From contig QGVH02000009.1 of NCBI GenBank assembly GCA_003242735.2, forward strand, positions 7,660 through 71,659: a stretch of 64,000 bases of DNA. The letters are read 5' to 3'. The notes under the pieces were generated by a model, which made no database searches, was not told the origin of the DNA, and saw only the letters and a list, made by a program, of their open reading frames with translations. This stretch comes from a bacterium (GTDB taxonomy: Bacteria; Gemmatimonadota; Gemmatimonadetes; Longimicrobiales; RSA9). Positions 3,829 to 39,661 of the stretch are shown piece by piece (within the stretch, counting starts at the first letter, position 1; each line of letters starts with the position of its first letter). Made by a program: the position numbers and the translations under genes.

Positions 3829-4449
3829 ATGAACCGCGACACCGCTCCGGACCTCACCAGACGAGTCGCGCCGGCCGTCGCCCTGCACGATCGCGCCGCC
3901 GCCGACCTGCGCTACAGCCGCCGCACCATGGAGCAGGCCGGCTCCTTCACGGCGGTCCCCGGGCTGGGCGGCATCCTCATGGGCGTCTCCGCGCTCGCGG
4001 CCGCGGCGCTGGCCGCGAGTCGGCCCACCTTCGAGCAGTGGCTGGCCGTCTGGCTCGGGGAGGCGGCGGTCGCGGCGGCCATCGCGGCATGGGCCGTGGC
4101 GCACAAGGCGCGGAGCGTGGGGATCCCGCTGCTCTCGGCACCGGGGCGCAAGTTCCTGCTGAGCTTCTTCCCGCCCGTGGCGGCGGGCGCCGTGCTGACG
4201 TTCGCGTTGCACCGCGCCGGCGCGATGGAGGCGATCCCCGGCACCTGGCTCCTGCTCTACGGCTCGGCGATCGTGGCCGCGGGCACGTTCTCCGTCCGGA
4301 TCGTTCCGATCATGGGGCTCTGCTTCATGCTGGCGGGAGGCGCGGCGCTGCTCTCGCCGCCCCACTGGGGGAACGCGTACCTCGCCGCGGGCTTCGGCGG
4401 CCTCCATGTGCTGTTCGGCGCGCTCATCGCGAGGAGGCACGGTGGCTGA
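3829..4449 (+). CDS. Polytopic inner-membrane protein of unknown function
   Basis: The 206-aa product has about five or six hydrophobic segments (GGILMGVSALAAAALAA, AVWLGEAAVAAAIAAWAV, FLLSFFPPVAAGAVLTFAL, WLLLYGSAIVAAGTF, IMGLCFMLAGGAALL). It is translationally coupled to the downstream regulator. Confidence 0.75.
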   Translation: MNRDTAPDLTRRVAPAVALHDRAAADLRYSRRTMEQAGSFTAVPGLGGILMGVSALAAAALAASRPTFEQWLAVWLGEAAVAAAIAAWAVAHKARSVGIPLLSAPGRKFLLSFFPPVAAGAVLTFALHRAGAMEAIPGTWLLLYGSAIVAAGTFSVRIVPIMGLCFMLAGGAALLSPPHWGNAYLAAGFGGLHVLFGALIARRHGG

Positions 4450-4843
4450 CGGTAGCGTGGCGCGACGGCGGCGCGAGGACCCGGCTCGCGCGACGGAGGA
4501 GGCCCGGCCGGCGGCTGCGCCGCGCGGGTCCGGCGCCAGGCGCAGGAGCGCCGTCGAGCTGGACCGGGTCATCCACGAGCGCGTGCGCCTCGGCATCGTG
4601 AGCGCCCTCGCGGTCAACGACAAGCTCAGCTTCAACGACCTCAAGCGCCTGCTCGACACCTCGGACGGCAACCTCAGCGTGCACGCGCGCCGCCTGGAGG
4701 AGGCCGGCTACATCGAGTGCATCAAGTCCTTCCGGGGGCGGGTCCCGCGCACCGAGTACCGGCTGACGGCGGAAGGGCGCCGCGCGCTGGAGCGTTATCT
4801 GGACCACATGGAGGCGCTGATTCGGCACGTGCGGTCGCAGTGA
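4442..4843 (+). CDS. Winged-helix (ArsR/MarR-like) transcriptional regulator
   Basis: The C-terminal 95 aa (VIHERVRLGIVSALAVNDKLSFNDLKRLLDTSDGNLSVHARRLEEAGYIECIKSFRGRVPRTEYRLTAEGRRALERYLDHMEALI) are a typical wHTH. The start is uncertain. I chose GTG 4442, which overlaps the upstream stop (GTGGCTGA). Confidence 0.7.
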   Translation: MADGSVARRRREDPARATEEARPAAAPRGSGARRRSAVELDRVIHERVRLGIVSALAVNDKLSFNDLKRLLDTSDGNLSVHARRLEEAGYIECIKSFRGRVPRTEYRLTAEGRRALERYLDHMEALIRHVRSQ

Positions 4844-5010: not shown

Positions 5011-6561
5011 ATGAACGATCCGCGCAATCGGCCCGGCGCCGTACTGGGCACAGGCCTCGTGCTCGGCCTCCTCGCGGATGCGCTGTTCCGTGCCGACGGC
5101 GAGCCGGCCCTGAACCTCTTCCTGTGGGCGGCGGCGCTGGGCACCGCCGTCGTACTGCTCCGCCGCGCACGGGGTGCACCGACCAGCCGCGAGGCGGTGG
5201 CCCTGCTGGCCACCGGCCTCGTCATCGCCGCGAGTCTGGCATGGCGGGACTCACCCACACTGAAGCTGCTGACGCTCGCCGCCACGGCCGGCGTGTTCGC
5301 GTTGGCGGCGCTCGATGCAGGCAAGGCCTGGGTGAGGCACGCGAGCGTGACCCGGTACGGGCTCGCGGTGGTGGTGGCTGCCGCCCGCGCCGGGTTCGGC
5401 GTGCTGGTGCCGCTCGCAGACGTGGACGGGGCGGCGCTGCGCGCGCATTCGGCCAGCGGTTCGCGGCGGAGGCGCGTGGGCGCCATCGTCCGCGGCATCC
5501 TCATCGCACTGCCGCTGCTGGTGGTGTTCGGCGGCCTGTTCATGGCGGCGGACGCGGTGTTCGAACGCCTGGTGGTGAACGCGTTCCGGATCGATCTGGA
5601 GGACCTGGCGAGCCACGTGGCGCTCACCGGCTTCTTCGGATGGGTCGCCACCGGCTACGTGTACGGCTTCCTCACCGGCATGCGGCTGCCCGCCCGGCGG
5701 GCGCACTCGCCGCGCGACGCGATCCAGGATGCACCGCTCCGCGTCCTCGCCCGGCGCCCGTCGCTGGGCATCACCGAGAGTGGTGTCGCGCTCGGCCTGC
5801 TCGCAGCGCTCTTCGCCATGTTCGTCGTGGTCCAGTTCCGGTACCTGTTCGGCGGCGCGGAGCTGGTGGAGGTCACGCCGGGGCTGACCTATGCGGAGTA
5901 CGCGCGGCGCGGCTTCTTCGAGCTGGTCGCGGTGGTGGCGCTGATGGTGCCGGTGCTGCTGGCGGCGGACTGGCTGCTGCGGCGCGAGCGGCCGCGGGAC
6001 GAGCGCGTCTTCCGCGCCATCGCGGGCGTGCACGTCGTCCTGCTGGCGGCGGTGATGACGTCGGCGCTCCAGAGAATGCGGCTCTACCTGGAGGCGTACG
6101 GCCTGACGGAGGCGCGGTTCTACGCGACGTCGTTCCTGATCTGGCTCGCCGTGGTCCTGCTCTGGTTCGTGGCGACGGTCTTGCGCGGGCGACGCGACCG
6201 GTTCGCGTTCGGCGCGCTCGTGTCCGCCGTCGTCGTCGTGACGGCGCTCCATGGGATCAACCCGGACGCGGTCATCGCGCGCACGAACCTCGCCCGCGAG
6301 CGTGCGGGCAAGGAGCTCGACGCGGCGTACATCGCGTACCTGAGCGGCGACGCGGTCCCCGTGCTGGTCCCGGCGCTGCCCGCGCTGCCCACGGAGGCAC
6401 GCTGCCGCATAGCGGAACGGCTGCTACGGCTCTGGGGTGGGGAGCGAGGGCTGGACTGGCGGAGCTGGAACCGGAGCGCGGCGCGTGCGCGCGCCATCGT
6501 CCGCGGGCGTGCGGCGGACCTGGGCCGCTTCGCGGACGAATGCCCGCGGCCCGGCCGCTAA
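5011..6561 (+). CDS. Large polytopic membrane protein, DUF4153/DUF4173-like
   Basis: The 516-aa product has more than 10 predicted TM segments and a soluble C-terminal tail. The overall pattern resembles DUF4153-family proteins, from memory of the family and not searched. Confidence 0.75.
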   Translation: MNDPRNRPGAVLGTGLVLGLLADALFRADGEPALNLFLWAAALGTAVVLLRRARGAPTSREAVALLATGLVIAASLAWRDSPTLKLLTLAATAGVFALAALDAGKAWVRHASVTRYGLAVVVAAARAGFGVLVPLADVDGAALRAHSASGSRRRRVGAIVRGILIALPLLVVFGGLFMAADAVFERLVVNAFRIDLEDLASHVALTGFFGWVATGYVYGFLTGMRLPARRAHSPRDAIQDAPLRVLARRPSLGITESGVALGLLAALFAMFVVVQFRYLFGGAELVEVTPGLTYAEYARRGFFELVAVVALMVPVLLAADWLLRRERPRDERVFRAIAGVHVVLLAAVMTSALQRMRLYLEAYGLTEARFYATSFLIWLAVVLLWFVATVLRGRRDRFAFGALVSAVVVVTALHGINPDAVIARTNLARERAGKELDAAYIAYLSGDAVPVLVPALPALPTEARCRIAERLLRLWGGERGLDWRSWNRSAARARAIVRGRAADLGRFADECPRPGR

Positions 6562-29667: not shown

Positions 29668-30438
29668 ATGCCGAAGGACAAGGACCTCAAGCGCCTGGTC
29701 CGGGCGCGCATGGCGAAGACGGGCGAGTCGTACACCACCGCCCGCGCCCGCATCATCGCGAGGAAGCACGAGCAGATCCCAGAGTCTGCAGCCGCCCAGC
29801 CCGTTGCAGCAGCGGTGAACGCCGGGGAGACACTCGCCGTGCCGGCCGCTGCGCCCGCGACCGCTGCACCGCTCTCGCTTCCCGACGATTACGAGAAGAT
29901 CGCCGGCAAGAGCGATGCGGCGGTGAAGAAAGCATCGGGTCGGACGTGGCCCGAGTGGGTCGCGCTGCTCGACGGCCACGGCGCGGCGGGCATGGAGCAC
30001 CGCGCGATCGCGAAGCTCGTGCACGAGGAGTACGGCGTGGGCGAGTGGTGGGCGCAGATGATCACCGTCGGCTACGAGCGTCTGCGCGGGCTGCGCGATG
30101 TCGGCCAGCGGCGCGGCGGCGCCTACGAGACGAGCAAGAGCGTGACGGTCGCCGCGCCGGTCGAGGCGCTGTGGCGCGTCGTCTACGACCGGGCGCAGCG
30201 CGAGCGCTGGTTGCCGAGCGTGGATCTCGAGGTCCGCACGGCCACGGAGCCCAAGTCGCTGCGCGCCCGGCTCGCCAACGGGATCAAGCTGGAAGCGTAC
30301 TTCACCGCGAAGGGGCCGGCGAAGAGCACGCTCGCGGTCCAGCTCAAGGGCCTCCCGGACAGGGAGGCGGCGCGGGCCGCAAAGGAGTTCTGGGGCGAGC
30401 GGCTGGCCACGCTGAAGGCGCTGGTCGAGCGGGAGTGA
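29668..30438 (+). CDS. DUF4287-like domain protein with an SRPBCC-like C-terminal half
   Basis: The start is ATG 29668 after GAGGAG. The central segment SGRTWPEWVALLDGHGAAGMEHRAIAKLVHEEYGVGEWWAQMITVGYERLRGLR is typical of DUF4287, recalled from memory. Confidence 0.7.
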   Translation: MPKDKDLKRLVRARMAKTGESYTTARARIIARKHEQIPESAAAQPVAAAVNAGETLAVPAAAPATAAPLSLPDDYEKIAGKSDAAVKKASGRTWPEWVALLDGHGAAGMEHRAIAKLVHEEYGVGEWWAQMITVGYERLRGLRDVGQRRGGAYETSKSVTVAAPVEALWRVVYDRAQRERWLPSVDLEVRTATEPKSLRARLANGIKLEAYFTAKGPAKSTLAVQLKGLPDREAARAAKEFWGERLATLKALVERE

Positions 30439-30569
30439 GGGCGAGCACGCTCGGAGGACGTGGATGAAGAACGGGGTGGCCCGCTGCGGCGGGGGCCACC
30501 CCGTTCGCCGTCGGCGGCGGCGACGCCGATGCATCCCACGGCAGCGCGCCTTTCGCATCGCCCGCAGGG

Positions 30570-31868
30570 TCACCCGTGCGCCGGGGCGAGCAACGCGCGC
30601 AGATACCCGGTCCACCGGGCGGCCCGCGCAGAGCTGTCGGCGGGCTGGTCACCCCCGGATTGCGGCTCGCGGTTGCGCTGGACCGCCTCCCACGCCTCTT
30701 CGCTCTCCCACGGCCGGTGAGCGCCGTGCCCCGACCACCTCGGCGCCATGCCCGCGGTCCAGAGGAGGCGGCGCAAGCGCACGGACGGACACGGCCCGGG
30801 ATTGCGCGGGTACAGCGAGGCGATGTAATGCCGCTCGAGGAGGTCCAGCACCAAACGCGGCCGCGGGGGACGGAGCCGCTCGAGGACAGGCGGGGGCACG
30901 GTCACGTGAGCGAGTGACCGCGCGAGACGGAACGTCCAGTAGCACGCGGTCGTTGCACGCGCGGCCCGAGCGGCGTCCACGACTGCATCCCAGTCCACCG
31001 GGGTGCGTCCGAGGATCTGGTGCAGGTCACGGAACGTGCGCCACGACGCATGCGCGAGGCCGTGCGACCACGCGAAGTGCACGGCCAGGTGCAGCACCTG
31101 ATGTTCAGTGGCAGGGACGAGCGCACGCCGGCCGTGGATCTCTATGGCACGCGCGCTACGCCAGATCGTCTCCGCAGGAAGATGGATGGCGTCCGTCTGA
31201 CTGAGCGCCGCGTGCAGCTCCAGCGCGATGCCCGTCCCCAGCGGGTCGAGTAGAGGCGGCAGGTGGTGGTGCGCCTCGTAGATCTCGGATGGGTACGCTT
31301 CGGCGTCGTGTACCCAGCCGGCGGCGCGCAGCGCCTCCCACGCGGCGGCGACGTGCTCCTGCCTGACCAGCAGATCCACGTCGTACATCGGCCGCGCTGC
31401 GAAGGAGCCGTACGCCGTCGCCGCGACACCCGCCCCCTTCAGCAAGACGACGTCGATGCCTCGTTCCGCGAGCGCGTCCAGCGCGCCGATGAGGAGCTGC
31501 TGGAGCCGGAGCATGCGGAACTGCGTGGCGCGCACGAGCGCGGCGAGGCGAGTGCGCGAGGTCGGCGGGATGCTGTCTTCGGGCGCGCGGTCCGTGAGCC
31601 CTGCGAGGGCACCAACGGCTTTCTCTTGCCACGCGAGTGTGAGCAACGCGTCCCAATCCAGCGACGGATCCTGCAGCGCCGCTGCGGCTCCCGCCGGATC
31701 GAGATCGGGCTGGATTGCGGCGAAGAGGACGCGCGCCTCGGGGCAGAGGAGCCGGCGGCTCACGCTGTTCAGCGCGTCAGCCACGGGACGACGGCAGGAC
31801 CGACAGGGACGGGAGAGGCAGCATGGCAGCAATCGGTCCCCGGGGGGCCGCGGCCCCCCGGGACGCAT
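30570..31868 (-). CDS. Nucleotidyltransferase-fold protein (NTP_transf_5-like), lasso-cluster tailoring candidate
   Basis: The 432-aa product contains ERGIDVVLLKGAGVAATAYGSFAARPMYDVDLLV and LHLAVHFAWSH, typical of the uncharacterised nucleotidyltransferase family seen in RiPP/lasso clusters. Its start lies 5 nt after the stop of precursor A1. Confidence 0.8.
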   Translation of the reverse strand: MRPGGPRPPGDRLLPCCLSRPCRSCRRPVADALNSVSRRLLCPEARVLFAAIQPDLDPAGAAAALQDPSLDWDALLTLAWQEKAVGALAGLTDRAPEDSIPPTSRTRLAALVRATQFRMLRLQQLLIGALDALAERGIDVVLLKGAGVAATAYGSFAARPMYDVDLLVRQEHVAAAWEALRAAGWVHDAEAYPSEIYEAHHHLPPLLDPLGTGIALELHAALSQTDAIHLPAETIWRSARAIEIHGRRALVPATEHQVLHLAVHFAWSHGLAHASWRTFRDLHQILGRTPVDWDAVVDAARAARATTACYWTFRLARSLAHVTVPPPVLERLRPPRPRLVLDLLERHYIASLYPRNPGPCPSVRLRRLLWTAGMAPRWSGHGAHRPWESEEAWEAVQRNREPQSGGDQPADSSARAARWTGYLRALLAPAHG

Positions 31869-31873
31869 CAGCG

Positions 31874-32014
31874 TTACGAGCGATCCTTGTCCTTGCAGAA
31901 GAGCTCGTCGCCGTCGCCGATGCCGAAGATGCCGCCGTCGCAGTCCGGGTTCGTCCCGAGCCGTGTCAGTTCACGCACCGACCCGAACCGCTCGAGCTTG
32001 GGCTTGATGTACAT
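31874..32014 (-). CDS. Lasso peptide precursor A1 (46 aa): MYIKPKLERFGSVRELTRLGTNPDCDGGIFGIGDGDELFCKDKDRS
   Basis: These are the last 46 codons of the spurious track ORF 31874..33268. ATG 32014 is preceded by AGGAGGGAGT. The leader KPxLE...ELT-x resembles known lasso leaders. It lies immediately downstream of the cyclase and is a paralog of A2. Confidence 0.8.
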   Translation of the reverse strand: MYIKPKLERFGSVRELTRLGTNPDCDGGIFGIGDGDELFCKDKDRS

Positions 32015-32034
32015 ACTCCCTCCTTTGGGATGAT

Positions 32035-32082
32035 GGGTTGCGGGCGACTGGCCCGCGCAGCCTGTCGCACCCGCGACAGGAT
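32035..32082 (-). repeat. Copy 1 of the 48-nt double-hairpin element upstream of a precursor gene
   Basis: It matches 38487-38534 at 47 of 48 positions. The minus-strand RNA reads AUCCUGUCGCGGGUGCGACAGGCUGCGCGGGCCAGUCGCCCGCAACCC. Hairpin 1 is CCUGUCGC/GCGACAGG and hairpin 2 is GCGGGC/GCCCGC. Confidence 0.75.
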
Positions 32083-32085
32083 CGG

Positions 32086-34053
32086 TCAGATCGCAACGGT
32101 TGCCGCCGCAACGACCGTAGCGTTCGTCGGTTTCTCCAGACTTCCGGACGCGTTGCCTCGCCGGGCACGCAGCCAGAGCTCCGTCTGGAGCGTGTAGTAG
32201 AGGCCGACCCGGGTGGCGGCGTCTCGGCGGCGCGGGTACTCCGCGCACGCGCGGCGCAGCTCTTCGGCTCGAACGATGCCCAGCTCCTCCAGCACGAGCG
32301 GCTCGCGCATCGTCCGTTCGAGCAGACCGGGGAACACCTCCACCATCCAGCGGTGCGAGTAACCACCGGTGATCCCGGTCCGGTACGGCCGCGGGGCGAG
32401 AACCTCCTCCGGCAGCAGACCGTGCATGGCCCGCCGGAGCAGACGCTTGGTCTCCTTGCCGGACGATCGCTCCCACCAGGGGCGCGACACGGCGAATTCG
32501 ATAACACGCCGGTCTGACAACGGCGAGCGGACCTCGACGCCCTCGCGCAGCGCGAACCCCGTGATCAGGGCGAACGCGCGGGAGACGAAGAGCGAGGTGA
32601 AATGCCAGTCGATCTCCCGGCCCGCGTGCGTGGCGGGGATCTCCCGCGTGAGGAACTCGCGGTCGCGCGCCTCCAGCTCGTGGCGCGCGACGAACTCCGG
32701 GTTCAGCCAGGACGGGATCGGGCGCTCGAGATAATGCTTCAGCCGCCGTCCGCCCCGGAGCCACGCGGCGAGGCGGAGCGCTGGCTCCGGCAGGTTGGGC
32801 TGGATCACCCACTTGAAAAACGGCCGGAACCCGCCGCGCGGCCGGGCCCGCCACTCGCGCGCCACCGTCCACCAGCGCCCTGCCCGGAACAGGTCGGCCA
32901 GGAAGACGTCCGAGTTCTGGAAGAGCTGGTCGCCGCCGTTGCCGTCCATGGCGACGCGTGCGCCCAGGGCCCGGGCCCCGGCTGCGAGCGCGCCGTTCCA
33001 CCGCTCGTAGAGGTGCGCGTACGGCTCGTCCCGGGCCGCCGCCCGCTCCTCCTCGCGCTCCAAGAACGGGATGTCCGCGATGTCGATCCAGTGGACGGCC
33101 CCCCCCCACCGGTCCGCGATCGCCTGGATCCACTCGTCCTCGCGCCCCGGGTCGCCTTCGGGGTAGCTGATCGAGACCGGCCGCACGGCCGCGTCCAGGC
33201 CGTCCCGGCGGATCACGTGGCACGCCGCGCCGAACACCGCGGTCGAATCCCACCCGCCGCTCATCCACACGGCGTTCACCGCGCCCGGCTGCAGCCGCTC
33301 CCGCACCGCCGTCGCCAGCAGCTCACGCAGGTGCACGGCCGCATCCTCGTGCGAGAGCCGGCTGGGCTCAGCGTTCACCGGCACCTCCCAGTACCGGACC
33401 GGGCCGTGGAGACGGCCGTCCGACCAGCTCATGCGGTGCGCGTTGGGGAGCACGCGCACCGCCGTGTAGCAGGTCTCCGGGCCCGCGGAGAAGTGCAGGC
33501 CGGCGATCGTCGCCCCGAGGATCGGCAGGTTCAGGTCGTCCGGGCAGCGCGGGTGCGCGACGACCCCGCCGATCGTGGACGCCACGACCAGCTCGCCGCC
33601 GAGCTCCGCGTAGTGGAGCGGACGTTTCCCGCCGAGATCCCGCGCGCACAGGACCCGCCGCCTCGCCCGGTCCCAGAGGATGAAGGCGAAGTCACCCTCG
33701 ATGTGCGACACGCAGTCGTCGCCCCAGGCGCGATAAGCGGCGAGGATCAGGTGCGCCGGCGAGTCGCCGGCCGGGCTCACGCCACGCTCGCGCAACGCCC
33801 GCCGCAGGTCTTCGCGGTAATAGACGGACGCGTCCGCCGCGACCACCACAGCGCCGTCCTCGACGACCAGCACCGGGCCGCTGAACGTCGGGTCGAGCTC
33901 CCATTCGTGGCGCGCGACCGCGAGCACGGCATCGCCGCCCCGCCAGATCTGCAGACGATCCCCGCCCCGGGCCGACATGCGGCCCAGCATCGCGCGGATC
34001 TGCGCATCCGTCACAGACGGCGCGTCACCGAACACCCCGACAATTGCGCTCAC
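32086..34053 (-). CDS. Lasso peptide cyclase (asparagine synthetase B-like, McjC-type)
   Basis: The 655-aa product starts at GTG. It has an N-terminal Ntn-like domain without the catalytic Cys (MSAIVGVFG), the PP-loop WMSGGWDSTAVF and a C-terminal Asn-synthase fold. A precursor gene lies 71 nt downstream. Confidence 0.92.
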   Translation of the reverse strand: MSAIVGVFGDAPSVTDAQIRAMLGRMSARGGDRLQIWRGGDAVLAVARHEWELDPTFSGPVLVVEDGAVVVAADASVYYREDLRRALRERGVSPAGDSPAHLILAAYRAWGDDCVSHIEGDFAFILWDRARRRVLCARDLGGKRPLHYAELGGELVVASTIGGVVAHPRCPDDLNLPILGATIAGLHFSAGPETCYTAVRVLPNAHRMSWSDGRLHGPVRYWEVPVNAEPSRLSHEDAAVHLRELLATAVRERLQPGAVNAVWMSGGWDSTAVFGAACHVIRRDGLDAAVRPVSISYPEGDPGREDEWIQAIADRWGGAVHWIDIADIPFLEREEERAAARDEPYAHLYERWNGALAAGARALGARVAMDGNGGDQLFQNSDVFLADLFRAGRWWTVAREWRARPRGGFRPFFKWVIQPNLPEPALRLAAWLRGGRRLKHYLERPIPSWLNPEFVARHELEARDREFLTREIPATHAGREIDWHFTSLFVSRAFALITGFALREGVEVRSPLSDRRVIEFAVSRPWWERSSGKETKRLLRRAMHGLLPEEVLAPRPYRTGITGGYSHRWMVEVFPGLLERTMREPLVLEELGIVRAEELRRACAEYPRRRDAATRVGLYYTLQTELWLRARRGNASGSLEKPTNATVVAAATVAI

Positions 34054-34266
34054 AGCACGATACCCGAATTGCGCGGTCCCAACGCGCTACCACGAAGTGG
34101 AGTTGGCCGACGCTCGCGGCGACGGATCACATTCGATACCCCGGGCCGATGTGGCCGCGCGCGCCAGCGGCCGGTTTGCAAGGGGAGTGCCATTCGGGGT
34201 GGCCACTCATCTCGTAATATGACAACATGTTACGGTTTTTTGGCGCGACGTGTCGGCGGTTCGGCC

Positions 34267-34315
34267 TGTTGCAGGCGATCATCATCTTGGCGCCCAGAAA
34301 AGTCACCATTTTGTC
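34267..34315 (-). repeat. Copy 1 of a conserved upstream non-coding block (candidate promoter/operator of the cyclase unit)
   Basis: It matches 39057-39106 at 38 of 50 positions with one 1-nt gap. Shared blocks are TGTTGCAGGCGA, CATCA, TGGCGCC, GTCACC and TTTTGTC. It lies in the 299-nt gap between the permease stop and the cyclase start. Confidence 0.5.
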
Positions 34316-34352
34316 GCAGTGAGATCGCCGCACGGCAAGCGGGTCCGTCCCA

Positions 34353-35153
34353 TCAATAATGTGAGAGAGACCCGACGCGCCGCGCGTACGCGAGCGCGAC
34401 CCGCAACGCGATCATCCCGACGGACAGCAAGCCGACCACGAAAAGGGCGAGGATCGCGAGGTCCGGCAGCACCGCCCGGAGCGGCTCACCTTCCAGCAGG
34501 GTCCGGCGCAGCGCCCGAAGGCCGTAGGTCAGGGGAATCATCCCGGAGACAGACTCGAGCCAGGACGGAATGACGTGCGTCGGGTAGTAGACGCCTCCGA
34601 GGAGCGCGGAGAGGGTCGTGACGGCCTGCGGCAGTGGGCCCGTCGTGCGGAAAGCGATGACCAGCGCCGCCGCCATCATCCCGAACGGAACGTAGGCGAG
34701 GACAATGAGCAGCACGATGAGGAGGGCGAGCCCGACCCGCGACCAGAGGATCGTCGCGCCCAAGAGCCATGCGCCGACGAGCATGGTGGCGGCGCGCAAA
34801 CCCGCCCATAGCAGGCTGAAGCCGATCAGCCCGGCCAGGACCTCGGACAGGCGGGTTCGGGTGCCGAGCAGGGCCTCGAGCACGCCGGTATTGATGCCGG
34901 AGCCGATCTCGCCCGCGAGCGCGTTGACGCTCACGGGGAGGAGCAGGAACGTCATCGTGCCGACGGCGAGGAATGCGAAGTATTGATCGCCCTCCGCAGC
35001 GATCTTGTCGGCCATGATTGGCTGGAGCGCGTTGGCGACGAAGAACAGCGGCACGACGGTCGCGAGCAACGAGAGGGTGGAGAAGACCATGCGGACGCGA
35101 TAGCTCCGTGCCGCGAGCCAGCGCGCGCGGATCAATGCGACGGCGCCTCGCAT
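34353..35153 (-). CDS. ABC-2 type transporter permease (lasso export/immunity candidate)
   Basis: ATG 35153 overlaps the ATPase stop (ATGA). The 266-aa product has about six TM segments. The upstream 54 Arg-rich codons of the track ORF were discarded. Confidence 0.85.
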   Translation of the reverse strand: MRGAVALIRARWLAARSYRVRMVFSTLSLLATVVPLFFVANALQPIMADKIAAEGDQYFAFLAVGTMTFLLLPVSVNALAGEIGSGINTGVLEALLGTRTRLSEVLAGLIGFSLLWAGLRAATMLVGAWLLGATILWSRVGLALLIVLLIVLAYVPFGMMAAALVIAFRTTGPLPQAVTTLSALLGGVYYPTHVIPSWLESVSGMIPLTYGLRALRRTLLEGEPLRAVLPDLAILALFVVGLLSVGMIALRVALAYARRVGSLSHY

Positions 35154-36235
35154 CAGTCCTCCGCCTTCAGGCGGACCATGCGCTCGAGCAGGTCCGCGAG
35201 GGTGACCGGTCTGTGCTCGACCCCGCAGACGGCGACTCCGTGCCGGACCAGATGGCCCACCATGTCGGCGACGCCGTCGGGGCCGCCGGGAATGGGAGCC
35301 TCGACGACGGCCCAACGGGCGGTGCCGCGACCGTCGTCGAGCGTCGCGCCAATGTGTCCGGCGCGGGCGAGTGCGCGGAGCGCGTCGTCGACGTGGTCGG
35401 CGCGGACCGTCAAGCGGTACATGTCGTCCCGGACCTCGCCCATCAGTTCGTCGAGCCGGCCGACGGCGAGCAACCGCCCGCGATCGAGGACCGCGACGCG
35501 CTCACAGAGCTCGAACGCCTCCTCCGCATTGTGGGTCGCCAGGAGGATCGTGCACTGCTGGCGGCCGACGATCTCGTCGCGGAGGAAACGGCGGAACTGG
35601 CGCGCGGCGACGGGGTCGAGGCTCCGGGTCGGCTCGTCGAGCAGGAGCACCTTCGGCCGCGCCAGCAGCGCTCGCGCGATGAGGAGCCGCTGCTTCATGC
35701 CGGAGGAGAAGGTGCCGACCAACTTGCTGCCGGTGTGCTGGAGCCCGACCGCCTCGAGCAGTTCCCCGACGCGCGTCGACACGTCCCGGCGAGGAACGCG
35801 GTAGAGGGCCGCGAAGAGCTCGAGGTTCTCGCGCGCCGTGAGTCGCCAATCGAGGCTGCGCTCGTCCGGCACCACGAGCGCGAGCGCGCTCCGCACGGCG
35901 TGCGGCTCGCGAAGGATGTCGTGGCCTGCGATGCGCGCCGTGCCGGCGTCGGGGAGCAGCAGTGTGCTCAGCATCCGGAATAGGGTGGTCTTGCCTGCGC
36001 CGTTCGCGCCGAGCAGGCCGAAGAACTCGTTGCGGCGGATGTCGAAGCTGACGCCGTCGACGGCGGTGATGCGCCGCGCCCGGCGCCAGGGAGCGCGCAG
36101 GATCTCACCCCAGGTGCGCCGCTCGGGAAACGCCTTGGTGAGCCCCTGGACGGAGACGATGGGCTCGCCGTCGGCCGGGCGGGCGGCGGACGCACTGGCG
36201 TGTTGCGACGATGCAGTGAGCGGCGCGGTGGTCAT
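35153..36235 (-). CDS. ABC transporter ATP-binding protein (lasso export/immunity candidate)
   Basis: ATG 36235 overlaps the kinase stop (ATGA). It has Walker A GANGAGKTT, signature FSSGMKQR and Walker B LLLDEPTRSLD. It is part of the 751-aa track ORF 35153..37408, whose 5' part is spurious. Confidence 0.9.
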   Translation of the reverse strand: MTTAPLTASSQHASASAARPADGEPIVSVQGLTKAFPERRTWGEILRAPWRRARRITAVDGVSFDIRRNEFFGLLGANGAGKTTLFRMLSTLLLPDAGTARIAGHDILREPHAVRSALALVVPDERSLDWRLTARENLELFAALYRVPRRDVSTRVGELLEAVGLQHTGSKLVGTFSSGMKQRLLIARALLARPKVLLLDEPTRSLDPVAARQFRRFLRDEIVGRQQCTILLATHNAEEAFELCERVAVLDRGRLLAVGRLDELMGEVRDDMYRLTVRADHVDDALRALARAGHIGATLDDGRGTARWAVVEAPIPGGPDGVADMVGHLVRHGVAVCGVEHRPVTLADLLERMVRLKAED

Positions 36236-37203
36236 GGCGTCGTGCCGGCGAGAGACTGCGCGTGCCAGTCGCGGATGGTGGCGACGGCCTCCTCGAGCCG
36301 ATCGAAGTCGCGCACGATTTCCAGCCGGTAGACGGGGACGCAGGCTGCGAGCGCCGTCGCGTGCCGGAACAGGTTCGGCGCCTCGGGGCCCGTGAGCAGC
36401 GGCGCCAGCTTGGCGTGGCCGAGGATCACCAGGGCCGCCTCCATGCCGGAGAGCCGCGTGCGGCGGACGGCTGCGCCGTCGGGTGCCTCCCGGACCGGGG
36501 CGAGCAGGTACAGCGCCGCGAGCGGGTGCGTGCAGTGAGAAACGCGCTCCTCGGGCAGGGCGCGGAACACGGTCTTCGGCCCCACGGCAGCGGGCGCCGC
36601 CTGGCCGATGCCGACGACCCTGGCCGAGTCGGCCCAGAGACGGGCGGCGTGGAGGCCGGGGCCTGCGAGCGGCGGCGAGCCGGCAAGGACCGGCATGGTG
36701 TCGTCGGTGAGGAGCTTCCCGCCGGACCTCACCAGCGCGAGCGCCAACGTTGACTTCCCGTGCCGCTTCGGCGCGACGAACCCGACGGCCTGCCCGTCCA
36801 GCACCACCGCGCTCCCATGGAGACAGACGGTGCCGGCGGCGTACAGCGCGGTGGCGAGCACGCGGCTGGTGATGTCGGCCCGCGCGTCGGCGGCCGAGAC
36901 GTCCTCTGCATGGGTCCACGTGATGGTCCGGCCATCTGCGGCGATGTCGAAGCAGCCGGTATCGTCGAAGACCAGGCGGAACCCGTGGCTCGTGCGGTAA
37001 AGACGGGTCTCGACGCCCGCCGTCACCGTGTCGCTCCCGAGCGGGACGCATTCCGCCTCCGGCGGCTCGCCGACCCGCGAGCGGAGGACCCACGTCACGT
37101 CCTCCGCGGGATCCGCCGCCTCGAGCTCCGGGATCGCCAGATCGCTCTCGAGGACGCCGCCGAAGAGCCGATAGCGATGCCTGATGGAGGGCTCGTTCGT
37201 CAT
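36232..37203 (-). CDS. HPr kinase/phosphorylase-related kinase (lasso precursor Ser kinase candidate)
   Basis: The 323-aa product has P-loop-like VAPKRHGKSTLALAL and LHGSAVVLDGQAVGF, typical of HprK-related kinases in kinase-type lasso clusters. Its start codon directly abuts the B2 stop codon (37203/37204, no overlap). Confidence 0.8.
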   Translation of the reverse strand: MTNEPSIRHRYRLFGGVLESDLAIPELEAADPAEDVTWVLRSRVGEPPEAECVPLGSDTVTAGVETRLYRTSHGFRLVFDDTGCFDIAADGRTITWTHAEDVSAADARADITSRVLATALYAAGTVCLHGSAVVLDGQAVGFVAPKRHGKSTLALALVRSGGKLLTDDTMPVLAGSPPLAGPGLHAARLWADSARVVGIGQAAPAAVGPKTVFRALPEERVSHCTHPLAALYLLAPVREAPDGAAVRRTRLSGMEAALVILGHAKLAPLLTGPEAPNLFRHATALAACVPVYRLEIVRDFDRLEEAVATIRDWHAQSLAGTTP

Positions 37204-37662
37204 TCAGAACTCGACCAGCCGGAGATCCGGCAACCGGGTGAACGTCTGCACGTGCTGCCGCGAGTCGCCGATCACGACACCGTCCAGCTCGATCCACGCG
37301 TGCGCCTCGAACTCGCCGTTGCGCCTGCGCACGCCGACGTTGATCCTGCTCGCCGTGATCCCCCGCCGTCGCAGCATCCGCTGGATCGCCATCGATCGGA
37401 CCAGGCATTGCGGCCGGAAGACACCGTACCTCGCTGCCCGTGTCACCGCCCAGGCGACCGCCTCCGCAATGCGTCGATCCTCACGGCTCGGTGCTCGTCG
37501 CTCGGGCTCGGGCTCTGCCCTCCCGAGGAGCTCACCGACGGGGCGCCGCCAGCGTTCGTACTGGCACGCGAGCAGCACCACCTGGGCCTCTGCGAGCAAC
37601 CGCACCTCTCGCAGAGTGAGCCCGCGGAGTCGGCGGAGCCACACGGCCGCGGTCCGGGTCAT
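37204..37662 (-). CDS. Lasso peptide B2 leader peptidase (transglutaminase-like cysteine protease)
   Basis: The 152-aa product has a Cys...His...Asp context (RPQCLVRSMAIQRML, EFEAHAWIELDGVVIGD), typical of the McjB C-terminal domain family. Confidence 0.85.
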   Translation of the reverse strand: MTRTAAVWLRRLRGLTLREVRLLAEAQVVLLACQYERWRRPVGELLGRAEPEPERRAPSREDRRIAEAVAWAVTRAARYGVFRPQCLVRSMAIQRMLRRRGITASRINVGVRRRNGEFEAHAWIELDGVVIGDSRQHVQTFTRLPDLRLVEF

Positions 37663-37666
37663 GGGG

Positions 37667-37942
37667 TCACCGTTCGTCGGCCGGGATCACCAGGCCGTGA
37701 CGCGCCAGGTCATCGAGGAGCTCGACCACGTCGCTCCGGAGTTGCTCGGCGGGCACATCCGGATAGCGCCGCCCGAGCTCCGCGCACACCTGGTCGAGGT
37801 CCTGGCACGTGGGGGGCAGGAGTTGCCACACCTCGACACCGACGGGGTTGAGACCGAAGTAGACTTCCTGTTCCATGTGCAGGAGGATCGCGCCCTCCGG
37901 CACGGGCTGGAACAGCACGGCAGGGTGAGGTTTCGGCAGCAT
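37667..37942 (-). CDS. Lasso peptide B1 protein (PqqD-like RiPP recognition element)
   Basis: I chose the start at ATG 37942. The product begins MLPKPHPAVLFQPVPEGAILLHMEQEVYFGLNPVGVEVWQLL, a typical PqqD-family pattern. The stop lies 4 nt before the B2 start. No obvious SD is present, so the start is uncertain. Confidence 0.78.
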   Translation of the reverse strand: MLPKPHPAVLFQPVPEGAILLHMEQEVYFGLNPVGVEVWQLLPPTCQDLDQVCAELGRRYPDVPAEQLRSDVVELLDDLARHGLVIPADER

Positions 37943-38282
37943 TCGTTCAGAATCGAAACGACACTCTGGTTGAAAGCGGGTCCATGACGCCGGTGGCCGG
38001 ACGGGCAAGTCAGGGGCCGATGGGGGCCATGGCGGCCAAATCGTGAATCCGTAATGACCTGGGAGACGTCCGGCGCCGACACGGGCGCCTCGAAGCTGTT
38101 GCGTTTGCGCAACCCTGTCAGGGAGGCGGCGCGGCGGCGGTGCGACACTGCCGGCCGGGAGGGCGGCGAGCAGGCCACGGCCTCGAGGCAGCGGAGCCCG
38201 CGCCTCCCTCGTCCACCGCGTCGACCGCGGGGGACGAGGGGAGGGGGCGGAGCGTCCGGTCAGGATCGGCGCAGGGAAGGGC

Positions 38283-38304
38283 CCGGGGGGCCACGGCCCC
38301 CCGG
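38283..38304 (-). terminator. GC hairpin 10 nt after the A2 stop (attenuator or mRNA-stabiliser candidate)
   Basis: The minus-strand RNA is CCGGGGGG-CCGUGG-CCCCCCGG, an 8-bp all-GC stem with a 6-nt loop and no U tract. A gap of about 340 nt follows before B1. Confidence 0.4.
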
Positions 38305-38314
38305 CGGGTTGGTG

Positions 38315-38464
38315 CTACGAGCGGTTTCCGGTGTTGGTGCACCCTACCCAATGGCCGCGGGCGGCGTCGACGCCGAAGATGCCGCCGTCGCAATCGGTGC
38401 TGAGACCGTATTGGGTCAGCTCGCGCACCGAGCCGAACCGCTCCAGTCTCGGTTTGACATACAT
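38315..38464 (-). CDS. Lasso peptide precursor A2 (49 aa): MYVKPRLERFGSVRELTQYGLSTDCDGGIFGVDAARGHWVGCTNTGNRS
   Basis: These are the last 49 codons of the spurious track ORF 38315..38983. ATG 38464 is preceded by GAGAGGAG. It matches A1 at 24 of the first 31 residues, with many synonymous codon differences. Confidence 0.8.
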   Translation of the reverse strand: MYVKPRLERFGSVRELTQYGLSTDCDGGIFGVDAARGHWVGCTNTGNRS

Positions 38465-38486
38465 TCGATCACTCCTCTCGGGAGAC

Positions 38487-38534
38487 GGGTTGCGGGCGAC
38501 TGGCCCGCGCAGCCTGTCGCACCCACGACAGGAT
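38487..38534 (-). repeat. Copy 2 of the 48-nt double-hairpin element upstream of a precursor gene
   Basis: It matches 32035-32082 at 47 of 48 positions. The single difference (plus-strand A at 38524 versus G at 32072) turns a C-G pair of hairpin 1 into a U-G wobble on the minus-strand RNA only. Confidence 0.75.
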
Positions 38535-39056
38535 AGCACAGATGGCACCGGTAGCGCCACCCTTCGATTCGAACGGCACCTCGCCCCTCCCGCGCGGGCG
38601 AGCCGCGCGTCGGCATCGCGAGCATGCCCCGGGAACGCCTCGACCGCCCCGTGTCGGGCGGCGGGGCGCTCCCCCGAACAGGACGAGCCGGACCACCGCC
38701 CCGGAAGACGGCCGGAAAGCGCTGTGCGGTTCCGCCTCCTCCGATCAACGGGGCGCCGTGCCCGGCGGACAGCGCCCCAGCTGCGCGGGTGTGGAAGTCG
38801 GCCGCTGCGTGTGCCCAACCGAAACCGCCGACGACGGCGCGCACCGGCGCTTTCCCGCACGGATCCGGTCTGAGGGTACCACCACAGCGGGCGCTGGCCG
38901 CCGCACCCGGCGGCGCAGGAGAGACGGCCACAGCGGCTGCCGCAGCCGTTCGCTGCGCGGGGGGCCCGCAAACACGATACCAAACAGGGGGATGCCGTCT
39001 ATCTCGTGTGGCTACGAGAGTTTCGAGACGGCACGCCGTGCGGTGCGGCGCAGTCT

Positions 39057-39106
39057 TGTTGCAGGCGAGCATCAGACCTGGCGCCTGCATTGGTCACCGT
39101 TTTGTC
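39057..39106 (-). repeat. Copy 2 of the conserved upstream non-coding block
   Basis: See 34267-34315. A further shared ATCTCGT word lies 56-58 nt away in both copies (34209-34215 and 39001-39007). Confidence 0.5.
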
Positions 39107-39202
39107 CCACGGCGGCGGGCCACCGGCTCGTCGTACGATACGAGAAGGCGCCGACGAACCATGCATGGCGAAGCGTGACGCGGCCGCGCGCCGCGCGCCT
39201 GC

Positions 39203-39661
39203 TCACCCCTCCTGCTCCGCCGCCGTCGCGATCTTCGGCTCGACGGCGACGTCAATGGCGATCCCCTGGCGTACGCTCTGGGTGACGGTGCAGAAGTCCT
39301 CGAAGAGGCCGATGCAGCGCGTGAGGCGCGCGGCGTCGGCCTCGTCCAGCTCCGGGGCGAGCCGGACCGCGATGCGGCTGACGCGGAGGCGGCCCGCGTC
39401 GTTGCGTTCGATGGTGCCGCTCACCTCGGTCTCCATGCCCGTCACGGGCACATGCGCCTTCTGGAGGCAGAAGAGCAGACTCGCGGCGAGGCAGCTCCCC
39501 ACCGCGGCGCCGAGCAGCGCGGTCGGGTTCGGCCCCGCGCCCCCGCCCAGCGGCGGCGGCTCGTCGACGGTCAGTTCTCCGGTGGTCCCGGAATCGAAGC
39601 GGACCGCGAACTCGTAGCCGTCGCGCCGCGTCAGCGTGACTCTGAAGGTGTTGTCTTTCAT
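39203..39661 (-). CDS. OsmC/Ohr family peroxiredoxin-like protein
   Basis: The start is ATG 39661 after GGGGAG. The sequence GGGAGPNPTALLGAAVGSCLAASLLFCLQKAHV...CIGLFEDFCTVTQSV has the typical OsmC pattern with conserved Cys. Confidence 0.85.
   Translation of the reverse strand: MKDNTFRVTLTRRDGYEFAVRFDSGTTGELTVDEPPPLGGGAGPNPTALLGAAVGSCLAASLLFCLQKAHVPVTGMETEVSGTIERNDAGRLRVSRIAVRLAPELDEADAARLTRCIGLFEDFCTVTQSVRQGIAIDVAVEPKIATAAEQEG

Follow-up and report, generated by a model that had tools for sequence, protein, structure and literature searches.

Pseudomycoidin, a lasso peptide of Bacillus pseudomycoides, is produced from the psmCAKB1B2ND cluster, which encodes a precursor, split B1 and B2 proteins, a cyclase, an HprK-family kinase, a nucleotidyltransferase and an ATP-binding cassette (ABC) exporter (PMC6993621). 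The precursor ends in a Ser that is (poly)phosphorylated by PsmK, and PsmN, an uncharacterised nucleoside triphosphate (NTP) transferase with a D134/D136 metal site, is needed after PsmK for the addition of one or two hexoses to the phosphate (PMC6993621). HprK-like kinases also act on the linear precursors of paeninodin, ThcoA and SyanA, where His-Lys-Asp-Asp is the catalytic motif (PMC9266682), and on BsfA (PMC10368454). Both the paeninodin and the pseudomycoidin kinases phosphorylate the C-terminal Ser of the linear precursor. Here we analyse a 64,000-nt stretch of a Gemmatimonadota genome (GCA_003242735.2, contig QGVH02000009.1, positions 7,660 to 71,659; hereafter the window) and in particular A1, a 46-codon gene directly behind a lasso cyclase gene. 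A1 is an uncharacterised lasso precursor of the kinase-plus-nucleotidyltransferase, pseudomycoidin-like type, and its gene has already been annotated. We put at roughly 0.9 the probability that A1 is translated and, as part of a complete kinase/nucleotidyltransferase cluster, matured and expressed along the pathway proposed below.

A first-pass annotation of the window had described A1 as a hidden gene that begins at ATG 32014 behind a ribosome-binding site, lies 71 nt past the cyclase stop and encodes a 46-residue peptide. All of these elements are found exactly in the sequence. The start codon occupies 32014-32012, the TAA stop 31876-31874, and the 71-nt gap separates the ATG from the cyclase TGA at 32088-32086. 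The full translation is MYIKPKLERFGSVRELTRLGTNPDCDGGIFGIGDGDELFCKDKDRS. A1 is masked in the longest-open reading frame (ORF) list, which merges it into a GTG-started 464-aa ORF at 31874..33268 (minus strand). This ORF overlaps the cyclase gene at 32086..34053 on the same strand but in a different frame. In the 418 codons that precede ATG 32014 the GC content is 0.90/0.72/0.53 at codon positions 1/2/3, and Arg and Pro make up 21% and 13% of the encoded residues, as is typical when a real gene is read off-frame. The 46 codons of A1 are gene-like, at 0.59/0.41/0.91, compared with 0.74/0.52/0.91 for the cyclase. The earlier dismissal of the Arg/Pro-rich ORF as junk over the cyclase gene is thus upheld, in its off-frame, same-strand form. 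The word "hidden" applies only to the longest-ORF track, because GenBank already lists this very peptide under MFO7260507.1, a "lasso RiPP family leader peptide-containing protein" (RiPP, ribosomally synthesised and post-translationally modified peptide). The paralogous precursor A2 is present as MFO7260514.1 / PZN91088.1, and the A1 and A2 accession numbers are 7 apart, matching the expectation from gene order.

A protein search gave close relatives of A1, and pattern scans combined with tblastn detected homologues at 4 loci in reference genomes and 30 in metagenomes (labelled L001 and onwards). The reference-genome loci, all from genomes other than the window's own, are metagenome-assembled genomes (MAGs) labelled Gemmatimonadales, Gemmatimonas sp., Longimicrobiales and, in one case, "uncultured bacterium". 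The first-pass annotation had named a homology search with the A1 peptide as a check, and a lack of homologous small ORFs beside cyclase genes as the outcome that would count against the gene. The search recovered 33 distinct homologous peptides from 34 distinct DNA sequences (Gemmatimonadota-type MAGs and metagenomes). The adverse outcome did not arise, because wherever a related locus has a cyclase, one or more homologous small ORFs follow it directly. This arrangement holds in the window and in L001, L008, L011-L017, L020, L024, L026, L027, L031, L033, L034, L036 and L038, and cluster synteny is kept in more than 20 loci. Two gene orders were found, B1-B2-K-D1-D2-C-A(n)-N, as in the window, and B1-B2-C-A-K-D1-D2-N.

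The leader model NF033521 (lasso_leader_L3) of NCBIfam, with a curated cutoff of 19 bits, scores A1 at 23.4 and A2 at 25.5 bits, and all of the 30 family peptides scanned exceed the cutoff; the GenBank names of A1 and A2 accord with this model. In their first 31 codons, A1 and A2 are separated by 10 synonymous and 7 non-synonymous changes. Among the homologues, the mean numbers of pairwise differences at codon positions 1/2/3 are 7.3/4.9/13.1, with the third position varying most. These patterns indicate that purifying selection acts on A1, which is intact. DNA of 72% GC, the value for this window, often contains long spurious ORFs, and a Pfam scan found no model that matches the A1 or A2 peptide, as would be expected if A1 were a chance open frame and either the 464-aa ORF or nothing at all were real. 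However, it is the long ORF whose statistics are off-frame, while A1 combines coding statistics and a ribosome-binding site with 33 homologues, synonymous variation, synteny and the NF033521 match. The comparative data already refute the chance-frame explanation, to which we give next to no weight.

The anatomy of the peptide supports its assignment as a lasso precursor. In known systems B1 recognises a YxxPxL motif with Tyr, Pro and Leu at positions -17, -14 and -12 (PMC10368454). Tyr2, Pro5 and Leu7 of A1 take up these positions when the core starts at residue 19, which places Thr17 at -2. We set the core start at Leu19 because of this spacing rule, and Thr-2 agrees with it. Tyr-17, Pro-14, Thr-2 and a C-terminal Ser are each present in 33/33 peptides, and Gly2 and Asp8 in 32/33. 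A1 itself has Asp8, an acceptor within core positions 7-9. Core residue 1 is Leu in 20 peptides, Ile in 8, Val in 4 and Tyr in one (A2). The lasso identity claimed in the first-pass annotation is well supported by the leader motif, Thr-2, Asp8, the NF033521 score above cutoff and the adjoining cyclase, B1 and B2 genes. The YxxPxL motif at -17 to -12 is shared with paeninodin, ThcoA, SyanA and BsfA, and the C-terminal Ser is conserved in the paeninodin group. BsfA differs in having Ile at -2 and a phospho-Ser3, whereas the A1 family has Thr-2 and an invariant terminal Ser.

Cleavage one residue later would make Gly the first core residue, with Thr at -3 and a 7-residue Gly1-Asp7 lactam in a product of 2812.21 Da (computed). 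Known lasso peptides start with Gly more often than with any other residue, and in this family Gly holds its position in 32 of 33 peptides while the residue before it varies (L/I/V/Y). In the outlier peptide of L010 (LAYWWWWWCEDEE...), only a start at Ala puts an acidic residue at position 9, but this is weak evidence because the L010 cluster has lost its cyclase. Moreover, Thr-2 and the Tyr-17/Pro-14/Leu-12 spacing independently put the cut before Leu19 in 33/33 peptides, and bulky first residues do exist, as Leu1 of citrulassin and Trp1 of fusilassin show. We consider the later cut unlikely and retain Leu19 as core residue 1.

Exactly two Cys residues occur in 31/33 peptides (Cys7 and Cys22 in A1). 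Cys7 is accompanied by one tail Cys in 28/33, and the three peptides without Cys7 place both Cys at other positions. The conservation of an even number speaks for a disulfide. Class III lasso peptides are defined by one ring Cys and one tail Cys that form a ring-to-tail disulfide (PMC9266682). The predicted A1 product is an 8-residue Leu1-Asp8 lariat with a Cys7-Cys22 ring-to-tail disulfide and class III topology. Its computed mass is 2925.29 Da as the lactam and 2923.28 Da with the disulfide, to which each phosphate would add 79.97 and each hexose 162.05. The computed monoisotopic values are then 3003.242 Da with the disulfide and a phosphate, and 3165.294 or 3327.347 Da with one or two hexoses besides; for the A2 product they are 3167.394 Da as the lactam, 3165.378 with the disulfide and 3245.344 with a phosphate as well. 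BI-32169 and 9401-LP1, both of class III, likewise carry one ring Cys and one tail Cys. However, known class III peptides are actinobacterial and the 9401-LP1 cluster stops at genes A-D, whereas the predicted A1 disulfide would coexist with a modified C-terminal Ser. Paeninodin, ThcoA, SyanA and BsfA differ from A1 in being class II and lacking Cys, and pseudomycoidin in having an Ala1-Glu9 ring and no such disulfide. The DCDGG(I/V)xG...C...RS core marks out a lasso subfamily without earlier description, NF033521 covering the leader only.

On the minus strand the genes are ordered A2-B1-B2-K-D1-D2-C-A1-N. As in pseudomycoidin, there is a precursor ending in Ser, split B1 and B2, a cyclase, an HprK-family kinase (K), a nucleotidyltransferase (N) and an ABC exporter. 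Unlike the Firmicutes cluster, this one comes from Gemmatimonadota-type MAGs, differs in gene order, and has a second precursor gene as well as a structured 5' leader RNA. The catalytic core of K is 33% identical over 147 residues to the validated kinase BsfK (E 9e-12). K also matches NCBIfam HprK_rel_A weakly, and a PDB sequence search gave a marginal HprK/P match that is of use only to locate the His-Lys-Asp-Asp motif, for which K has LHG at 128-130, GKS at 149-151 and DD at 167-168. N carries a YDVDLL motif, and PsmN, going by its description, appears to be in the same PF14907 family. A PDB sequence search with N returned only meaningless weak matches (cytochrome bo3, Dps).

Because the terminal Ser is invariant and both K and N are present, a pseudomycoidin-type pathway is most likely. 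By analogy with paeninodin, pseudomycoidin and BsfA, B1 would bind the A1 leader, and K would act on the linear precursor, as its characterised relatives do, and phosphorylate the C-terminal Ser that is invariant in the family. B2 would cut A1 after Arg18, and C would join the Leu1 amine to the Asp8 side chain, giving an 8-residue ring with the tail threaded through it. A disulfide would link the ring, at Cys7, to the tail, at Cys22, the phosphate would receive a hexose or a nucleotidyl group from N, and the product would leave the cell through the ABC pump.

A1 might instead be a redundant or silent duplicate, with A2 as the precursor that is actually matured. The two have identical leader motifs, and A2 stands ahead of the B1-B2-K-D genes, apparently with its own upstream region. 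The comparison among loci speaks against this. The position behind the cyclase is ancestral, being occupied in every related cyclase-bearing locus, while a precursor copy ahead of B1 was found only in the window and in L021. A1 also has an intact frame kept by purifying selection, and a ribosome-binding site, 5' leader RNA and 3' hairpin of its own. Near-A1 variants with 1-2 residue differences are present on many contigs, and multi-precursor cassettes are common in the family. A silent A1 is a very unlikely explanation, and we continue to treat A1 as a working precursor.

The ~50 nt directly 5' of the ribosome-binding site are nearly identical between A1 and A2 and conserved across organisms. 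At A1 this element begins 2 nt past the cyclase stop codon. The family pattern consists of hairpin 1 (7-8 bp, with a locus-variable sequence), a CUG linker and a near-invariant hairpin 2, GCGGGC-CAGYN-GCCCGY, and it lies directly upstream of the ribosome-binding site of every precursor in A1's subfamily. We built a covariance model, R1, from 11 sequences and searched 154 kb. There were 21 significant matches, all on the sense strand and directly 5' of a precursor ribosome-binding site, with two of them in the window. Pairing holds in 98% of the cells of the alignment, double-sided changes occur at 7 of 13 pairs, the covariation score was reached by 0/500 shuffles and sliding the partners cuts pairing to 31-58%, although the covariation figures are somewhat inflated because the alignment was fitted to the model; a raw MAFFT alignment already gave 6 covarying pairs. 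Scanned against Rfam with E values up to 10, the region 30000-39500 gave no match at 32034-32084 or 38486-38536 and only chance microRNA/sRNA matches inside genes. With strong covariation and no Rfam match, the leader element is a previously undescribed RNA motif. The invariant CUG linker and the complementary loop CAG could possibly form a compact pseudoknot.

Could the two hairpins act as DNA, as an operator palindrome or an unusual promoter, rather than as an RNA structure? Hairpin 1 is a perfect palindrome whose changes are all from one Watson-Crick pair to another, hairpin 2 is conserved in sequence and can be read with a GG-N10-GC spacing, and L031 and L036 carry a TTGACA...TATAT promoter-like sequence at the equivalent place. 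However, hairpin 1 varies in sequence by locus while its pairing is kept (5/7 pairs covary), a behaviour that conserved DNA-binding sites do not usually show. Only the sense strand has G-U pairs, with 10/21 sequences carrying one at the base of hairpin 2 and 2 more inside that hairpin, and this strand bias favours RNA over DNA. All 21 significant R1 matches also share the sense strand and the place directly 5' of the ribosome-binding site. We regard a purely DNA-level role as rather doubtful and take the element to be an RNA structure. Two specific promoter readings were rejected. Hairpin 2 as a sigma-54 promoter fails as the -12 GC is GT in about half of the sequences and the changes are compensatory. 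The "GATCCT"/"TATCCT" before hairpin 1 has no -35 at a workable spacing for a -10 box, and transcription would start inside the covarying stem. The distant subfamily formed by L031 (~4340-4410) and L036 (~5370-5440), with the leader ...LVCFGRLRDLT..., is without the leader RNA motif and has the TTGACA...TATAT sigma-70-like sequence between cyclase and precursor instead.

A third, weaker hairpin may cover the Shine-Dalgarno (SD) sequence. In A1, UCCC would pair with GGGA and CAU with AUG. The anti-SD pyrimidine stretch differs by locus (UCCC, GCGCC, CACCC), and pairing with the SD, sometimes also with the AUG, is kept. In 12/19 sequences this hairpin folds at -5 to -10 kcal/mol, compared with about -3 to -6.5 for shuffles. 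Its covariation is not scorable by column because the pairing register shifts between subgroups. The evidence for an SD-occluding hairpin in most members is suggestive. Downstream, both precursors and most homologues are followed by a GC hairpin of the form CC(C)GGGGGGC-loop-GCCCCCCGG(G). The terminator scan missed these hairpins because they have no T-run. The A1 copy is likely a partial terminator or a 3' stabiliser.

The cyclase gene is preceded by a 300-nt gap after D2, in which 34192-34177 is an exact match to TGGCAC-N5-TTGCW with GG/GC at -24/-12. This is the single match to the sigma-54 consensus in the window, even at one mismatch, and the GGCAC-N5-TTGC core is present at the same place in L001 and L016. 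A sigma-70 promoter scan of 30400-39300 returned zero sites. About 20 nt upstream of the sigma-54-like site there is an AT-rich, near-perfect inverted repeat at 34213-34234 (minus strand), CGTAACATG-TTGT-CATATTACG, preceded by an A-run in DNA that is otherwise 72% GC. Neither L001 nor L016 shows clear conservation of this repeat, which may be an activator site or a site of the integration host factor (IHF) type.

We propose that the C-A1-N message starts at the sigma-54-type promoter. The hairpin-bracketed A1 segment would be cut out of this message, or attenuated from it, as a stable and abundant small transcript, and this bracketing would yield an excess of precursor over enzymes. The weak SD-occluding hairpin would modulate A1 translation. 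A further-reaching proposal is that the leader represents a new cis-regulatory RNA class for RiPP precursors, as a ligand- or protein-gated translation element or a processing/stabilising module, and that the peptide family is the first lasso type in which a class III disulfide between ring and tail is combined with phospho-glycosylation at the C-terminus; we offer this tentatively and think it more probably wrong than right. If true, the leader RNA as a processing/stabilising module would set the precursor-to-enzyme ratio.

Several points weigh against the proposed pathway. The first core residue is Leu in A1 and Tyr in A2, where Gly, Ala, Ser or Cys is usual, and since Gly2 is near-invariant and Leu1 unusual, the alternative cleavage site stays alive. 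The cyclase scores 233 bits against the NCBIfam lasso cyclase model NF033535, below the equivalog cutoff of 525 bits, and so belongs to a distant subfamily. BsfK phosphorylates Ser3 rather than the C-terminal Ser (PMC10368454), so site specificity varies within the kinase family. The ring size, the threading, the disulfide, the phosphorylation and whatever group N attaches are predictions. The sigma-54 site is a consensus match and so a candidate promoter, and the regulatory role of the leader RNA is putative, drawn from sequence conservation.

The coordinates of the cluster and its elements are collected in Table 1.

Table 1. Features of the A1 lasso peptide cluster, in window coordinates unless a locus label is given
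Feature	Position	Strand	Details
A1 precursor gene	31874..32014	-	46 codons + TAA
A1 leader	32014..31961	-	residues 1-18, MYIKPKLERFGSVRELTR
A1 core	31960..31877	-	28 residues, LGTNPDCDGGIFGIGDGDELFCKDKDRS
A1 ribosome-binding site	32015..32026	-	AAAGGAGGGAGT; GGAGG at 32023..32019
Structured 5' leader RNA of A1	32034..32084	-	covariance model R1 68.7 bits, E 1.5e-13
A1 leader hairpin 1	32080-32073 / 32068-32061	-	followed by CUGC linker
A1 leader hairpin 2	32056-32040	-	GCGGGC-CAGUC-GCCCGC
Third, SD-occluding hairpin (suggestive)	32015-32060	-	weak
3' GC hairpin after A1	31839..31862	-	CCCGGGGGGC-CGCG-GCCCCCCGGG; no U-tract
Paralogous precursor A2	38315..38464	-	49 aa; MYVKPRLERFGSVRELTQYGLSTDCDGGIFGVDAARGHWVGCTNTGNRS; core YGLSTDCDGGIFGVDAARGHWVGCTNTGNRS
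5' leader RNA copy before A2	38486..38536	-	R1 68.5 bits
3' GC hairpin after A2	38283..38304	-	nearly identical to the A1 copy
B1, leader-binding PqqD-like RiPP recognition element	37667..37942	-	91 aa
B2, transglutaminase-like leader peptidase	37204..37662	-	Pfam PF13471; NCBIfam NF033537 82 bits vs cutoff 33
K, HprK-related lasso precursor kinase	36232..37203	-	323 aa; His129, Lys150, Asp167-Asp168
D1, ABC transporter ATPase	35153..36235	-	360 aa
D2, ABC-2 permease	34353..35135	-	start approximate
Candidate sigma-54-type promoter of C-A1-N	34177..34192	-	TGGCACTCCCCTTGCA; 124 nt upstream of cyclase start
C, lasso cyclase, asparagine-synthase-like	32086..34053	-	655 aa; Pfam Asn_synthase + GATase_7
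N, tailoring enzyme	30570..31784	-	PF14907 NTP_transf_5, E 7e-44; ORF open up to ATG 31868
Leader RNA in other loci	L001 9933-9982; L008 9933-9984; L011 5037-5090; L014 3693-3742 / 4213-4262 / 4738-4787; others		

The D1 ATG overlaps the K stop codon as ATGA. The first-pass annotation had placed the nucleotidyltransferase start 5 nt past the A1 stop. An in-frame ATG does exist there, at 31868, but the start of N is probably GTG 31784, ~90 nt past the A1 stop and beyond the strong GC hairpin. We favour this start because the 28 codons opened by ATG 31868 are Arg/Pro-rich with non-coding statistics (GC 0.71/0.82/0.75 at positions 1/2/3), they overlap the 10-bp GC hairpin at 31862-31839, similarity to other N proteins begins at residue 29-37, and the identical N protein on contig L007 is called from codon 29 (404 aa).

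Tandem precursors are found in L014-L016 (three each) and in L024 and L033 (two each). The tandem cassettes at L014 3761-4955, L016 5481-6675, L024 547-1189 and L033 ~515-1017 each have their own leader RNA and 3' hairpin, with conserved leaders and diverged tails. In L014 the entire 520-nt precursor cassette is duplicated.

Strain-level variants of A1 are found in L007 3-149 (JGI 3300000208) and in cluster members P0007, P0008, P0010 and P0011. They change the tail only, through a GI insertion plus Leu->His, Glu->Lys/Gln and Ile->Leu/Val. The nucleotidyltransferase beside the A1 variant in L007 is 100% identical to that of the window, and tail-only variation beside an identical N points to micro-diversification of the core peptide. 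Two 416-aa members of the A1 cluster at 90% identity, P0009 and P0012, were rejected as unrelated, phage-capsid-like proteins that reflect a clustering artefact.

When L021 (3870-5520) is compared with the window, the kinase is 99%, B2 87% and B1 63% identical, and the L021 precursor in the A2 position carries another core, IGLYADCDGGVFGTDNGGVGGCGGSGGGDFTDGGRS. Such a patchwork of identities suggests that the A2 end of the cluster recombines or turns over rapidly. L010 (8322-10135; Longimicrobiales MAG DASVDH010000018.1) has the order B1-B2-K-D1-D2-N-A, with the cyclase down to a 25-residue remnant. Its precursor core, LAYWWWWWCEDEEGGPPDNDPQHDRS, is odd in having five consecutive Trp, one Cys and no Asp8, and its leader RNA motif is degenerate. 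The L010 cluster is probably decaying.

Genome mining has given counts of lasso clusters for Gemmatimonadota (PMC11316326), and our literature search found no characterised lasso peptide from this phylum. The A1 gene itself is no discovery, because the NCBI pipeline already names the peptide, though its recovery illustrates that reading raw sequence can retrieve a RiPP precursor masked by a longest-ORF track. The practical value lies in the family, an uncharacterised Gemmatimonadota-type lasso subfamily. Its predicted chemistry would be novel in combination, with a ring closed between Leu/Ile/Val/Tyr1 and Asp8, a disulfide from ring to tail, and a terminal Ser that bears phosphate and a hexosyl or nucleotidyl group. 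The family also offers natural multi-precursor cassettes with hypervariable tails. To our knowledge, little is known about how precursor supply is controlled in RiPP clusters, and the leader RNA together with the candidate sigma-54-type promoter would provide a testable handle on this control.

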